Positions 1,102-5,204 of a DNA stretch of 5,204 bases are shown piece after piece (within the stretch, counting starts at the first letter, position 1; each line of letters opens with the position of its first letter). Position numbers and translations under genes: made by a program. This DNA comes from a virus. Lineage: Duplodnaviria; Heunggongvirae; Uroviricota; Caudoviricetes. The notes below the pieces were generated by a model. It made no database searches and was not told where the DNA came from. It saw only the letters and a program-made list of their open reading frames with translations. The stretch lies in IMG/VR virus record IMGVR_UViG_2548876958_000011. One strand, written 5' to 3'.

Positions 1102-1509
1102 TTATTTTATTGATTTATTTTTACGCGCTTTAAGCATTTCTTCGAAGAGTTTGTTGAAGTTTTCTACTCTTGCGCGCATTTCAGACAGCAAGGCTTCCTG
1201 CTCGGAAGATGGAAGAGCATCGAATAATTCGATCAATTCTTTGTGGTTGGGAGTTAGCTCTGTTTCCACATGAAGTTCTTGTGCAGGCACTGGTGCCTTG
1301 TCTTCGTCACCAAACATTAGCCATGTAGGTGAGCACTTCAGAGCATCCGCTAAAGCAAACAATCGTTTTCCGACTGGCTGGGTTTCGTCTCTTTCCCATT
1401 GTGAAATTGTGACGTGAGCAACTCCAGCGAGGCGCGCAGCTTCTCGTTGTGTTAAGCGTAATTCTTTTCGTCGCGCCAGAACTCGCTGGCCTAGGGTTCT
1501 TGTATCCAT
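1102..1509 (-). CDS. XRE-family HTH repressor (cI-like, DicA-like), 135 aa
   Basis: HTH segment LTQREAARLAGVAHVTISQWER near the N-terminus. Size and C-terminal region (CSPTWLMFGDEDK ... MRARVENFNKLFEEMLKAR) resemble DicA-type repressors as I recall them. Divergent from a Cro-like gene. No SD upstream of the ATG at 1509, suggesting a leaderless mRNA. Confidence 0.88.
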   Translation of the reverse strand: MDTRTLGQRVLARRKELRLTQREAARLAGVAHVTISQWERDETQPVGKRLFALADALKCSPTWLMFGDEDKAPVPAQELHVETELTPNHKELIELFDALPSSEQEALLSEMRARVENFNKLFEEMLKARKNKSIK

Positions 1510-1589: not shown

Positions 1590-1817
1590 ATGCTTAAAGT
1601 TGACGCAATTACTTTTTTTGGCAGCAAAACAAAGCTTGCCAATGCCGCAGGAGTGAGACTGGCAAGTGTTGCTGCTTGGGGGATACTGGTTCCTGAAGGT
1701 CGCGCGATGCGTCTACAGGAGGCATCTGGCGGGGAGCTTCTGTATGATCCCAAGGTTTATGACGAATATCGTAAGACGAAGCGGGCGGGGCGGTTGAACA
1801 ATGAAAATCACTCCTGA
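1590..1817 (+). CDS. Cro-like small DNA-binding protein (DicC/YdaS-like), 75 aa
   Basis: ATG at 1590 with AGAGGGGG 5 nt upstream; the track's start at 1587 is TTG one codon earlier. Segment FGSKTKLANAAGVRLASVAAW is HTH-like. Divergent from the repressor across the operator region. Resemblance to DicC is from memory. Confidence 0.75.
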   Translation: MLKVDAITFFGSKTKLANAAGVRLASVAAWGILVPEGRAMRLQEASGGELLYDPKVYDEYRKTKRAGRLNNENHS

Positions 1818-2322
1818 ACAGGCTCGTGAGGCTCTGGATGCCTGGATATGTCGACCAGGAATGACACAGGAGCAGGCGACGATATTAATCACTGAAGCAT
1901 TCTGGGCTTTGAAAGAGCGCCCGAACATCGATGTTCAGCGTGTCACAGATGAAGGTGGCGCGGTTGATCAGCGAGCGCTTGGCGTTAATCGAGTGAAGAT
2001 ATTCGAACGCTGGAAGGCTATCGACACCAGGGATAAGCGTGAAAAGTTCACGGCGCTAGTGCCTGCAATTATGGAGGCTATCCGGATTAATGATTTCAGG
2101 TTGTATCGTGAAATTAGTGACGGAAAAAGCATCACGTACATGATCGCCGGGTTAAACAAAGAATATGGCGATGTGGTGGAGTCCGGACTGCTTTTTGCTG
2201 ATCCTGCCGTAGTGGATCGTGAAACTGACGAACTTATAGAAAAAGCAATTGCTTTCAAACTTGCGTATCGACAGCAATACCAACAAAAAGCTGGATGGAA
2301 TTATGAGCCTTCTTTTTGCTGA
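1801..2322 (+). CDS. YdaT-like protein in the cII position, 173 aa
   Basis: ATG at 1801 overlaps the Cro-like stop by 17 nt. Immediately downstream of the Cro-like gene, where Rac/CP-933P-type prophages carry ydaT, reported as a CII functional analogue. Assignment is by synteny and recollection, not alignment. Confidence 0.55.
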   Translation: MKITPEQAREALDAWICRPGMTQEQATILITEAFWALKERPNIDVQRVTDEGGAVDQRALGVNRVKIFERWKAIDTRDKREKFTALVPAIMEAIRINDFRLYREISDGKSITYMIAGLNKEYGDVVESGLLFADPAVVDRETDELIEKAIAFKLAYRQQYQQKAGWNYEPSFC

Positions 2323-3268
2323 ACGCCCACTGGTTATAAACACACAGCTTGCGATGAAGATTGGCTTAAATGAAGCCATTGTGTTGCAGCAGTTGCATTA
2401 CTGGTTGAGAGATACCAATTCCGGCATGGAATGTGATGGTGTTCGCTGGATTTACAACACAACGGAACAATGGCTGGAACAGTTCCCATTCTGGTCAGAG
2501 TCAACGTTAAAGCGCGCGTTTGCAAGTCTGAAAACGCTGGGGCTTTTGCGTTGTGAAAAGCTCAATAAATCAAAGCGCGATATGACCAATTTCTACACGA
2601 TTAACTATGGGAGCGAGCTTTTAGATGATGGCAAATTGAGCGAATCCATCGGTTCAAAATGCGCCGCTCCATCAGGTCAAAATGACACGATGGAAGAGGT
2701 CAAAATGAAACGCTCCATTGGTTCAAAACGACCCAATGTCATCGGGTCAAAATGGCCCGATGATCCTACAGAGAATACAACAGAGATTACTACAGAGAAT
2801 AAAAACACTTTTCGTCCGGAAGCTTCGCAACCGGACCCGCAGACGGCTGAACAGGATTTTTTAATCCGGCACCCTGGCGCAGTTGTGTTTAGTGCGAAAA
2901 AACGCCAGTGGGATAGCCAGGAGGATCTGGCGTGTGCGCAGTGGATATGGGGGCGGATCGTGGGTCTCTACGAACAGGCCGCCAGTGATGATGGCGAGAT
3001 CATGCGACCAAAAGAGCCTAACTGGACTGTCTGGGCCAATGATGTGCGCACAATGCGGATGCTGGATGGCAGAAGCCACAGACAAATTTGTGAAATGTTT
3101 GGTCGGGTACAGCGGGATCCATTCTGGGTAAAAAACATCATGAGCCCGTCAAAGCTCCGCGAAAAATGGGACGAACTGGTCATCCGCCTGGGGCGTTCAC
3201 CTGTACAGCGTTGTGTTAATCATATTTCTGAACCGGATACAGAAATTCCGCCTGGTTTCAGAGGATAA
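2303..3268 (+). CDS. Phage replication initiation / replisome-organiser protein (O-like), 321 aa from ATG 2303
   Basis: N-terminal wHTH-like segment (LVINTQLAMKIGLNEAIVLQQLHYWL) typical of phage initiator N-domains. Iteron array and A/T-rich block lie inside the gene, as for ori-lambda inside O. The track's start at 2249 is TTG; ATG 2303 is preferred and overlaps the upstream stop by 20 nt. Confidence 0.8.
   Translation: MSLLFAERPLVINTQLAMKIGLNEAIVLQQLHYWLRDTNSGMECDGVRWIYNTTEQWLEQFPFWSESTLKRAFASLKTLGLLRCEKLNKSKRDMTNFYTINYGSELLDDGKLSESIGSKCAAPSGQNDTMEEVKMKRSIGSKRPNVIGSKWPDDPTENTTEITTENKNTFRPEASQPDPQTAEQDFLIRHPGAVVFSAKKRQWDSQEDLACAQWIWGRIVGLYEQAASDDGEIMRPKEPNWTVWANDVRTMRMLDGRSHRQICEMFGRVQRDPFWVKNIMSPSKLREKWDELVIRLGRSPVQRCVNHISEPDTEIPPGFRG
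2646..2755 (+). repeat. Replication-origin iterons, five copies of CCATYGGKTCAAAAYG-like repeat
   Basis: TCAAAA cores begin at 2654, 2677, 2700, 2723 and 2747, spaced 23/23/23/24 bp (about two helical turns). Copies fall in different reading frames, so conservation is at the DNA level. Confidence 0.7.
2765..2810 (+). other. A/T-rich block next to the iterons, candidate DNA-unwinding element
   Basis: Three tandem ACAGAGA(A/T)TAC-like units (2769-2802) followed by AAAAACACTTTT, directly downstream of the iterons, mirroring the ori-lambda layout. Confidence 0.5.
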
Positions 3269-3308
3269 GTTTTGATTTCAGGTCATGAGGTAATTTTAAG
3301 GGGGACTT

Positions 3309-3710
3309 GTGGCAAAAGTTTTTACACAAGAAGAGCGGGAAAAAATTAAAGGGCAGGTGGTGGAACTCGTGCGCCAGAGCGGTCGTGAGACGTTACGGCA
3401 ACTGGAAGCTAAAACAGGTGCGACTAGATATCTGATGAGCGTTCTTGCCAGAGAGCTGGTAGCCAGTGGCGATGTATACAACTCCGGCTACGGGTTATTC
3501 CCGTCTGAACAGGCGCGTAAGGACTGGCAAAACGCCCGCAAAAAACTCTCGAGGGCAAAGGTGAAGAAAACAGCTGTGGTTGATCCGGACCTTATCTGGT
3601 CGTTACCTGATGGAGAAATACGTCGCTACGACAGTCGCCTAAACATAATCTGTCGCGAGTGCCGGATGAGTGAAGTTATGCAGCGCATACTGGCATTTTA
3701 TCAGGGATAA
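3309..3710 (+). CDS. Hypothetical protein, 133 aa, possible winged-helix fold; function unknown
   Basis: GTG start at 3309 with strong SD AAGGGGGA (3299-3305); stop TAA 3708-3710. No Walker A motif, so not a DnaC/P-type helicase loader. Basic C-terminal half. Confidence 0.6.
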   Translation: MAKVFTQEEREKIKGQVVELVRQSGRETLRQLEAKTGATRYLMSVLARELVASGDVYNSGYGLFPSEQARKDWQNARKKLSRAKVKKTAVVDPDLIWSLPDGEIRRYDSRLNIICRECRMSEVMQRILAFYQG

Positions 3711-3806
3711 TGTTAGGTATTTTAGACGTTACTAGATTAAAAAGCATTAGTTCAGGAGTGAATTGACATTCTCATTTTTCATGGCACAGGGTAGATCTGG
3801 CGTGGT

Positions 3807-3832
3807 TGTCCGCTTTGTGCCAAAAGCGGACA
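3807..3832. terminator. Perfect 10-bp stem-loop in the convergent intergenic region; candidate terminator or RNA structure
   Basis: TGTCCGCTTT (3807-3816), loop GTGCCA, AAAGCGGACA (3823-3832). No clean U-tract on either strand, hence low confidence as an intrinsic terminator. Confidence 0.3.
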
Positions 3833-3928
3833 TCGAATAATTTCAGCAGCACTCAACCTTATTAACCAAATCGCCTCAACTCATATGGACATGCATCCGG
3901 AAGTGCCAACTTCGTAAACTTATTCACT

Positions 3929-5176
3929 TTAAGTCTGAGCCTCACTCTCTTGGCCATAAGTGGCTTGCCAGTATCTCGCCGTAGGGTTCATTAGAATGTG
4001 CAATACAAGCCACCATGCAAAAATGCAGGGAGGTTGATTGTAGTAACCGGCAGGCACATATCCGTGAGCTAGTTGATTTCGTAAATCACCATAGATTTTA
4101 TCTACCAGTAAGGCCTGAAGATTGCCAATTATGTCTACGCCGAAAGCTTCAATAATCAGTGGATTATCTAGTAATCCCTTGAGTCCATTTCGCTCTTGCG
4201 AACCGTCCCCGTGAAGCTGCGATGGTTCCTCACCTTTAATTTTAGCCACATATCTCAGACTATTTTCGATCTGGGGAATCAACACGTGGCATGCCGTCAT
4301 AAAATCTCCATTGAAACCGCAAACCATACCCTTGATGAAAAACTCTTCATGCCCAAACGGGATGAAGGGATGATTGATGAACATATCGCGAAAAAACGCC
4401 TCCGAGATTGGATATTTCATTGTGATCTCATCTGTAGCAGGAATAATTTGCCCAGCTACTGCCAACTCATGGTCGATACGCATTCTCGTCATCATTATGG
4501 GCCAAATAACTGCCCCATTTGCATCATCAATCCCCAATCCTGCGGGTATGCGAGCAAGTGTCATTCCCTCATGATCAATATGTGTTGATCCAAACATCCA
4601 AGCTATGCTGTTGGCCTTTTGTTCTATTGCTTGAGCCTTAAGTCTCTCAATGCTGGTTGGCCGACAGACCAGCATCGCAAGTCTGAAAACCATATCAAAC
4701 AAATCTCTTCCGACTACCCGACTCTTGGCTTGATGGACAATCTCACTAATATCTTGAGGGGGAGACTGAAGGATAGACATCTGGTGACGGGATTCGATTT
4801 GGTAATCACGCATTTCTTCATACAGCGCAAGACGTTCTATTCGGGTTCCTGGAATATTAGCCAGTGCTTCAATAGCATTCTGCATGCAGGCTGCCGAAAT
4901 CATACCGCCATCTTGGAATTTTGACTCTTCCAGATGTGTATCGGCAAGAAGCCGCCAGAATTCAAACTGTGTATCTCTGTCACAGCACCTATTCGCAATC
5001 GGGATTGCGGTTTTACAGGCATCGACGGCAAATGAAAATAATTTTTGAGCCAGATAGTTTTTTGTCAGAAACAGGAGTTCCTGGGCAATAAAAGATGGCT
5101 CACTCACTTTACAGTCGATATCGAGTTGCAGGAGTCGCAGCGGATAAGGTGGATTTGCCCCTATATTTCCAGACAC
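3929..5176 (-). CDS. Hypothetical 415-aa protein with C-terminal HEPN-like R-x4-H-x-Y signature; candidate abortive-infection / defence protein
   Basis: Long ORF convergent with the phage early operon. Motif DLRNQLAHGY at residues 364-373 (nt 4058-4081). Duplicated IDHE motifs (HIDHEGM, RIDHELA) mid-protein. GTG start at 5176 with weak SD, so the N-terminus is uncertain. Stop TAA 3931-3929. Confidence 0.7.
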   Translation of the reverse strand: MSGNIGANPPYPLRLLQLDIDCKVSEPSFIAQELLFLTKNYLAQKLFSFAVDACKTAIPIANRCCDRDTQFEFWRLLADTHLEESKFQDGGMISAACMQNAIEALANIPGTRIERLALYEEMRDYQIESRHQMSILQSPPQDISEIVHQAKSRVVGRDLFDMVFRLAMLVCRPTSIERLKAQAIEQKANSIAWMFGSTHIDHEGMTLARIPAGLGIDDANGAVIWPIMMTRMRIDHELAVAGQIIPATDEITMKYPISEAFFRDMFINHPFIPFGHEEFFIKGMVCGFNGDFMTACHVLIPQIENSLRYVAKIKGEEPSQLHGDGSQERNGLKGLLDNPLIIEAFGVDIIGNLQALLVDKIYGDLRNQLAHGYVPAGYYNQPPCIFAWWLVLHILMNPTARYWQATYGQESEAQT

Positions 5177-5204
5177 CTGTTATCACTTAACCCATTACTG
5201 GCTT

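Follow-up and report, generated by a model that had tools for sequence, protein, structure and literature searches.

A lambda ren homologue behind an empty helicase-loader slot in a lambdoid prophage, and a DnaT-like initiator tail that may recruit host DnaB-DnaC

In phage lambda, the replication origin lies within gene O, and ren is found directly 3' of P, giving the order O-P-ren. In the host primosome, DnaT serves as the adaptor through which DnaB-DnaC is passed on to DNA. The phenotype by which ren is defined is resistance to exclusion by Rex (rexAB). Lambda ren is dispensable (PMC10695390), and a preprint described Ren as 'likely involved in DNA replication' and reported two-hybrid contacts of the Rex proteins with O and Ren. 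Lambdoid modules that possess an initiator without a loader have been recorded as well: according to a survey, O-only replication modules occur in 34 of 314 lambdoid phages (~11%), and the O-only phage LLS forms plaques on E. coli K-12 (PMC12315714). As for the host primosome, a 2026 preprimosome paper reports that dnaT and dnaC interact genetically, proposes the N-terminal domain of DnaT as the recruiter of DnaB/DnaC, and describes docking of the DnaT C-terminal domain on PriA via a conserved hydrophobic interface (PMC13377028).

The viral DNA analyzed here (5,204 nucleotides, hereafter the window) shows 99.9% identity with a lambdoid prophage of E. coli ATCC 25922, in which it is integrated beside rspB, and of many further E. 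coli genomes. The genes follow the order ydfA (reverse strand), cI-like, Cro, YdaT/CII-like, initiator, a 133-aa ORF and a convergent DUF4209 gene (Table 1), and the early-right operon within the window is of the lambda type, complete, and part of a lambdoid prophage at the Qin site; it comprises Cro, the YdaT/CII-like gene, the initiator with its origin, and a ren homologue. A scan of positions 3200-4000 for terminators and promoters returned nothing beyond chance level. The original prediction placed a convergent defence-like gene next to the 133-aa ORF: the full DUF4209 protein has 595 aa (gene at L001:23929-25716) and matches the PADLOC model PDC-S39 with an E value of 2e-102, so that by this match it is a candidate defence gene, lying outside the replication module. 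The stretch from DUF977 to hokD resembles a cargo hotspot, at which mEp460_ev081 and Tritos have a different reverse-strand gene of ~1.3 kb and HannyBb has a methyltransferase and further genes. Two further observations concern the upstream genes. A 205-aa ORF on the reverse strand (201-818) has a full-length match to PHROG 35040 (E 2.8e-149) and is a CDS in the HannyBb annotation; the same stretch appears in the ATCC 25922 RefSeq record solely as a ydfB pseudogene fragment. In a few genomes, 448-aa proteins (P0002-P0004) consist of a YdaT-like part fused to the initiator (PF06254 plus 99% initiator coverage), which probably arose by frameshift artefacts or by reading through the 20 nt in which the two genes overlap (2303-2322).

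Table 1. Features of the window, with coordinates, strand and supporting matches.
Feature	Coordinates	Strand	Evidence or remark
cI-like HTH repressor, immunity region	1102-1509	-	Pfam HTH_3 E 1.5e-14; RefSeq CDS
Cro-like regulator, gene 1 of the rightward operon	1590-1817	+	Pfam P22_Cro E 2.7e-11; RefSeq start 1590
YdaT/CII-like gene	1801-2322	+	Pfam YdaT_toxin E 1.2e-5; PHROG 163 'CII-like' E 2e-40
Replication initiator, 321 aa	2303-3268	+	PHROG 391 'replication initiation O-like' E 1e-91
Origin iterons, five to six 23-bp repeats with internal dyad symmetry	2624-2762		spacing 23-24 nt; families D1/D2
Lambda-O-like C-domain segment, residues 147-294	2741-3184	+	BLASTP against lambda O
A-rich 12-nt repeats beside the iterons, candidate unwinding region	2766-2804		repeat family D3
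C-terminal tail QRCVNHISEPDTEIPPGFRG, 20 codons plus stop	3206-3268	+	similarity to the DnaT end
Spacer, 40 nt, site of the dnaC-like ORF in relatives	3269-3308		conserved in 45 loader-less loci
DUF977/Ren-like (LygF) protein, 133 aa	3309-3710	+	PF06163 E 6e-27; PHROG 142 E 1.9e-44; RefSeq CDS
Predicted winged-helix domain, DUF977 residues 7-65	3327-3503	+	AF2 pLDDT >90, H-H-H-beta-hairpin
C-terminal motif N..IC.ECR.S..M.R.LAFY, residues 112-131	3642-3701	+	common to lambda Ren
DUF4209 gene, 3' part, cut at the window end	3929-5204	-	Pfam DUF4209; 3' end 3929

The 133-aa ORF had been predicted to be a genuine gene for a non-ATPase, and this was borne out: a RefSeq CDS has the same coordinates ('DUF977 family protein', WP_001151189.1, in ATCC 25922 and many genomes), the DUF977 profile, with a cut-off of 22.1 bits, gives the protein 94.8 bits and aligns residues 1-133 with 1-131 of its 134 positions, and the protein contains no Walker A sequence, either as G....GK[ST] or as GK[STN]. 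Translation starts at a GTG codon with the ribosome-binding site AAGGGGG ~5 nt upstream, and homologues have a MAK start at the identical position, with ATG. The protein database holds 870 homologues, the PHROG 142 profile ('Ren-like exclusion protein') matches over the full length with 151 bits, and 24 phage records annotate DUF977 homologues as LygF or Ren-like; in the literature searched, LygF is found solely as a Salmonella marker name, and DUF977 in one unrelated paper. Searches of the protein with Pfam, NCBIfam and PADLOC returned DUF977 alone, with no match to the DnaC/IstB-type AAA+ loader family (PF01695) or to the P-type loader family (PF06992, Phage_lambda_P).

AF2 predicts a winged helix followed by a long helix, a disordered stretch at residues ~86-110 and a short helical C-terminal motif (mean pLDDT 77), and in a Foldseek search of the PDB the modelled winged helix resembled generic GntR/MarR types only, with E values of 0.014 or weaker. 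The last 20 residues are 50% identical to residues 73-92 of lambda Ren (E 4e-6), and when 15 diverse homologues, Ren among them, were aligned, N112, E117, C118, R119, S121, M124 and R126 did not vary; the N-terminal part also aligns with Ren, but without significance by itself. In the window, in lambda and in the relatives, the rightward early operon has this gene directly 3' of its replication genes. Judged by its family, motif and position, the 133-aa ORF is an ordinary lambda ren homologue and no stand-in helicase loader. The idea that DUF977 might be a hidden loader was rejected on the basis of the family assignments (DUF977 only), the predicted winged helix and the generic Foldseek matches. 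The window copy, with 133 aa, is 7-8 codons shorter than the typical protein of 140-141 aa, which ends in ...YxGNFQEVME; these last codons are replaced at the boundary of the DUF4209 island (3690-3710), and the conserved motif is intact.

No loader gene follows the initiator, as had been stated from the outset: the gene at 2303-3268 is succeeded by the 40-nt spacer and then by the 133-aa ORF. The accompanying statement that this ORF 'occupies that slot' was misleading: it is the ren position that the ORF takes, and nothing stands in that of the loader. When the window was compared with L025, a locus that has the same initiator and is 90% identical at the nucleotide level, positions 540-1284 of L025 were found to be absent from the window; these 745 nt correspond to a dnaC-like ORF, and the alignment resumes at 3286, with the spacer segment 3286-3308 aligning to the final dnaC-like codons and the DUF977 ribosome-binding site. 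From this alignment, the 745-nt difference looks like deletion of a loader gene, the direction of change being unproven.

In the 45-kb region around the window, no DnaC-type loader, P-type loader or helicase is annotated between the integrase gene and the tail genes at which the region stops, and tblastn with E. coli DnaC, two phage DnaC-like proteins, lambda P and the short P-like protein of Rac-SA53 found none there. The same five queries detected no loader in the complete genomes of HannyBb or LLS; the absence of a phage DnaB-type helicase from the 45-kb region and from HannyBb was determined by annotation. A canonical loader just outside the window, a possibility raised by the original prediction, was thus sought by annotation and tblastn over these 45 kb and none was seen, and displacement of the loader to another part of the prophage was rejected in the same way. 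Having an O-family initiator (PHROG 391, the C-domain and iterons) and no loader in the 45-kb region or in HannyBb, the window module belongs to the O-only class already described in print. The order initiator-DUF977 without a nearby loader is also present in the sequenced phages HannyBb, mEp460_ev081 and Tritos, and O-only modules are present in LLS, which has been grown on E. coli, and in SPN1S.

To survey such loci, viral contigs were scanned for the C-terminal peptide of the initiator, which gave 111 tail-bearing loci with enough downstream sequence. A DnaC-like gene begins 6 nt past the initiator stop in 56 of these, DUF977 follows the conserved 40-nt spacer without a loader in 45, and other genes come next in 10; a P-type gene comes next in none (0/111). 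DUF977 lies within the next four ORFs in 37 of 48 DnaC-containing loci. Both states occur within single initiator families: initiators at least 90% identical to that of the window were loader-less at 10 loci and accompanied by a loader at 2, a 58%-identical family was divided into 10 and 14, and Tritos-type initiators into 20 and 1, respectively. Rac-SA53 and Stx phage 75/02 show the order initiator, loader, DUF1627, DUF977, and locus L295 shows initiator, P-type loader, DUF977. Since DUF977 is present after a DnaC-type loader, a P-type loader or no loader, the ren slot is filled and the loader slot is empty in the window, and since DUF977 is kept in both states, it is the loader that varies and DUF977 that stays. 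As judged from these gene orders, DUF977/LygF is a winged-helix protein of accessory type, found in company with replication genes, with no predicted part in helicase loading, and a modulatory role in replication may be envisaged for DUF977/Ren. For annotation, DUF977 behind an initiator should be read as the ren slot and not as a sign of a missing loader. Over its full length, the phage DnaC-like protein has 51% identity with the DnaC of the host. Its gene is usually accompanied by DUF1627, an HTH protein of ~256-270 aa (e.g., L005:4216-4986), which is absent along with the dnaC-like gene in most loader-less variants.

The initiator is predicted to consist of an N-terminal winged-helix/DnaD-like domain, a disordered linker, a lambda-O-like C-domain and a DnaT-like tail. 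No Pfam family matched it, and because the alignment was shallow and the mean pLDDT only 52, its AF2 model is usable for domain layout only. The C-domain is 33% identical to lambda O over 148 aa (E 3e-26, BLASTP). The iterons, with the consensus CATCGGkTCAAAATG..CCGATG, are inside the linker-coding part of the gene, and the AT skew reaches its maximum at 2551-2850.

The last 20 residues of the initiator, QRCVNHISEPDTEIPPGFRG, are 70% identical to the last 20 residues of E. coli DnaT (E 1e-7), and over the last 13 residues 11 are identical (stretch SEPDTEIPPGFRG). The DnaT family model NF002770 scored 16.4 bits against a cut-off of 201 and matched at model positions 160-179 only, and the DnaT DNA-binding domain PF17948 gave no match in the initiator; by these profiles, the initiator is outside the DnaT family, and the tail is the only part common to both proteins. 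In viral contigs, matches to the tail pattern were true C-termini in 120 of 120 cases, with the consensus R.VN.[IV]S.PD..IPPGFRG. The IPxGFRG end is kept in all full-length initiator homologues except P0034, which has a DW...DVL end, and it is retained in 69%-identical Citrobacter and Salmonella initiators whose preceding residues differ. Between the window and L025, the last nine codons contain 5 synonymous and 0 non-synonymous differences. In comparisons with unrelated initiator genes, nucleotide similarity sets in at the first tail codon (3206 for Tritos, 3208 for 75/02), and the tail is therefore a portable mosaic unit. It was found on several scaffolds, namely Phage_rep_O (Gifsy-2), a DUF1376 type, a DnaT-domain type (SPN1S), HTH_36 plus Phg_2220_C (LLS, as IPEGFRG) and three types without a Pfam match, a count of lineages that is only rough because single-linkage clustering merges mosaic proteins. 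Taken together, these results suggest that the tail is a selected peptide and no accident. A literature search for the motif PPGFRG found no paper containing it, a search on DnaT-like phage proteins and the DnaT C-terminal tail found no statement of a partner, and the excerpted text of the O-only survey does not mention the tail (PMC12315714); within these searches, no earlier description of the 70% likeness was found. In some phage contigs (L049, L105 and L116), a gene for a protein that combines the DnaT DNA-binding domain with the tail precedes a dnaC-like gene, with the order and spacing of E. coli dnaT-dnaC (L007:2239-3518). The similarity hints at common ancestry of the host dnaT-dnaC operon and phage replication modules.

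The tail varies with the type of loader. It is present in 73 of 73 initiators upstream of phage DnaC-like loaders and in 0 of 78 upstream of lambda-P-type loaders, which end in ...LDLTNTDWIYGVDL; both counts refer to close relatives of two query loaders, include many near-identical prophages and represent few independent lineages, and modules with a phage DnaB-type helicase (P22 gene 18/12) were outside the scope of this census. Within the YdaU group, the Rac-SA53 protein has the end ...LDCTDWRDD and a P-type protein (PF06992) encoded next to it downstream, and shorter YdaU-type proteins with an IPPGFRG tail are followed by a DnaC-like gene. The exception mentioned above, P0034, belongs to the initiator family of the window and has a lambda-O-like DW...DVL tail ending in ...GDWNSADGWEDVL. 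A P-type loader was predicted to follow P0034 before the locus was inspected, and a Phage_lambda_P gene (PF06992) does overlap its stop, with DUF977 next. The P0034 case indicates one module family in three states, in which DUF977 is constant and the tail is matched to the loader. P-type-paired initiators have acidic/aromatic ends (lambda O ...TNTDWIYGVDL, YdaU ...LDCTDWRDD and P0034 ...GDWNSADGWEDVL; loci L004:2664-4188, L295:4001-5697 and, for lambda, L006:2030-3627). These ends suggest a second docking tail, specific to P-type loaders. As the tail-coding sequence and the dnaC-like start are 6 nt apart, co-occurrence of the two could mean physical linkage and not function.

The original prediction offered three readings of the absent loader, of which only the first, that the initiator C-terminus or host factors take over, was favoured by our data; it is the best-supported option in view of the lambda-O-like C-domain and a DnaT-like tail that co-varies with DnaC-type loaders. 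We consider, with a probability of roughly 60%, that the locus combines a ren-homologue ORF and an empty loader slot with a DnaT-like initiator tail that recruits host DnaB6-DnaC6 directly. The proposal builds on what was observed: the family to which the ORF belongs, its presence whatever the loader state, the lack of any loader, the identity of the tail to DnaT and the co-variation of tail and loader. From the sequences we infer physical binding of the tail to DnaC or DnaB-DnaC, and loading by the DnaC of the host. That the initiator manages with no loader of the phage's own is most likely due to its last ~20 residues, a copy of the end of host DnaT. Bound to the iterons, the initiator would open the A-rich region, and its flexible tails would then recruit DnaB-DnaC, using the phage's DnaC homologue if one is encoded and that of the host otherwise. 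Origin-bound initiator oligomers would recruit host DnaB6-DnaC6 as lambda O does P-DnaB, and the window phage, with its own loader gene absent, would use host DnaC for the loading of DnaB.

Other partners and roles of the tail have to be weighed against direct recruitment. The tail could dock PriA or another part of the restart primosome, in which case host PriA-PriB-DnaT would be channelled onto the opened origin and would load DnaB. Because the C-terminal domain of DnaT docks on PriA through hydrophobic contacts and its N-terminal domain, not its C-terminus, is favoured as the recruiter of DnaB/DnaC in the preprimosome paper (PMC13377028), PriA is a serious alternative partner; the N-terminal domain of DnaT is absent from phage initiators, and the hydrophobic core IPPGF of the tail is also in keeping with such docking. 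However, the excerpted text of that paper does not name the extreme tail as part of the PriA interface (PMC13377028), a PriA handle alone does not explain why the tail switches with loader type inside the same initiator families, and an initiator placed at PriA's DnaT site would compete with DnaT, so we regard docking on PriA as unlikely. The tail might otherwise be a hitch-hiking recombination linker, with the helicase arriving via the O-like C-domain, DnaA or transcriptional activation, together with host DnaC. The similarity of unrelated initiator genes that begins at the first tail codon, as in a mosaic joint, and the dnaC-like start only 6 nt away would both be expected of a linker, but the peptide is constant where the DNA varies (5 synonymous and 0 non-synonymous differences), the IPxGFRG-COOH core recurs in divergent homologues and in host DnaT, and the tail persists in the 45 loader-less loci, which were themselves found via the tail search. 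We therefore think it quite improbable that the tail is a mere linker.

The two remaining readings of the original prediction concern the 133-aa protein and the integrity of the module. A DUF977 protein acting as a new non-ATPase helicase adaptor in place of the loader would fit its location directly 3' of the initiator in the same operon, as well as the preprint that links lambda Ren to DNA replication and reports the Rex contacts with O and Ren. Yet the protein belongs to a known, unrelated family (DUF977/PHROG 142), an outcome that the original prediction had itself named as refuting, and is equally present, unchanged, behind DnaC-type and P-type loaders; its homologue lambda Ren coexists with P and is dispensable; the tail-bearing O-only phages LLS and SPN1S have no DUF977 beside the initiator; and structure prediction, suggested at the time as a check on an adaptor role, gave a generic winged-helix fold with generic Foldseek matches only. 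An adaptor of this kind is thus very unlikely. An incomplete module of a cryptic prophage, in which the loader was lost and the prophage became unable to replicate alone, would agree with the clean loss of the dnaC-like ORF relative to a close relative and with a site that is that of the defective Qin prophage of K-12. The operon genes are, however, all intact, the origin has its iterons and A-rich repeats, and the 45-kb region has integrase, lysis, terminase, portal, capsid and tail genes as far as the tape-measure gene, where the region ends; the same loader-less order recurs in HannyBb, mEp460_ev081, Tritos and 45 viral contigs, O-only modules exist in LLS and SPN1S, and LLS plaques on K-12 (PMC12315714). 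Decay was rejected because sequenced phages, namely HannyBb, mEp460_ev081 and Tritos, have the same architecture, which leaves it highly improbable; the module does not appear defective and is better regarded as functional.

The finding on the ORF is mostly ordinary, as it is a Ren/DUF977 member and loader-less lambdoid modules have already been recorded. The locus is of value because it opens two questions to testing: the way in which O-only lambdoid phages replicate, left by the survey (PMC12315714), and the way in which DnaT brings DnaB/DnaC to the primosome, left by the preprimosome paper (PMC13377028). The peptide of 14-20 residues that ends both DnaT and the initiator switches with loader type in natural variants, and is small and directly testable. 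More generally, and tentatively, at somewhat short of an even chance, initiator tails may specify the loading route: DW-type tails would go with P-type loaders and IPxGFRG, a host DnaT element, with DnaC-type loaders, and O-only phages would enter host DnaB-DnaC by DnaT mimicry. If true, the part of DnaT that draws in DnaB/DnaC during replication restart, long sought, would be revealed by the phage sequences as well, and these would tie phage replication modules to the dnaT-dnaC operon of the host.

Compared with the described systems, the window is closest in its origin to the lambda O-P pair, with which it shares iterons inside the initiator gene and a C-domain that is 33% identical; it differs in having no P and in the exchange of the lambda O end ...LDLTNTDWIYGVDL for a DnaT-like end. 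The 133-aa protein resembles lambda Ren in being small, in being encoded by the first gene after the replication genes of the pR operon, in its N-terminal helix-turn-helix region and in the C-terminal motif N..(I/V).(C/K)ECR.S..M.R.LA.Y, whereas Ren has 96 aa rather than 133, significant pairwise similarity is limited to the last 20 residues, and the window protein has a predicted extra helix and disordered linker. With E. coli DnaT (primosomal protein i), the initiator has in common the 70% identity of the last 20 residues, and in relatives the tail-bearing gene is followed by a dnaC-type gene after 2-6 nt, as in the E. coli dnaT-dnaC operon; the initiator, however, lacks the DnaT N-terminal domain and the PF17948 domain, and it binds an origin whereas DnaT acts as an adaptor in restart. 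Phage DnaC-type modules (Gifsy-2, Stx phage 75/02, i.e., 'Eru4', and Rac-like prophages) have the identical tail type and DUF977 downstream, but encode their own DnaC homologue and usually DUF1627, both of which are missing from the window. LLS, in turn, has an HTH_36 plus Phg_2220_C initiator and a methyltransferase as the next gene instead of DUF977, yet it shares with the window an O-family initiator, a phage that encodes no P, DnaC-type loader or helicase, and an O protein that ends in IPEGFRG.
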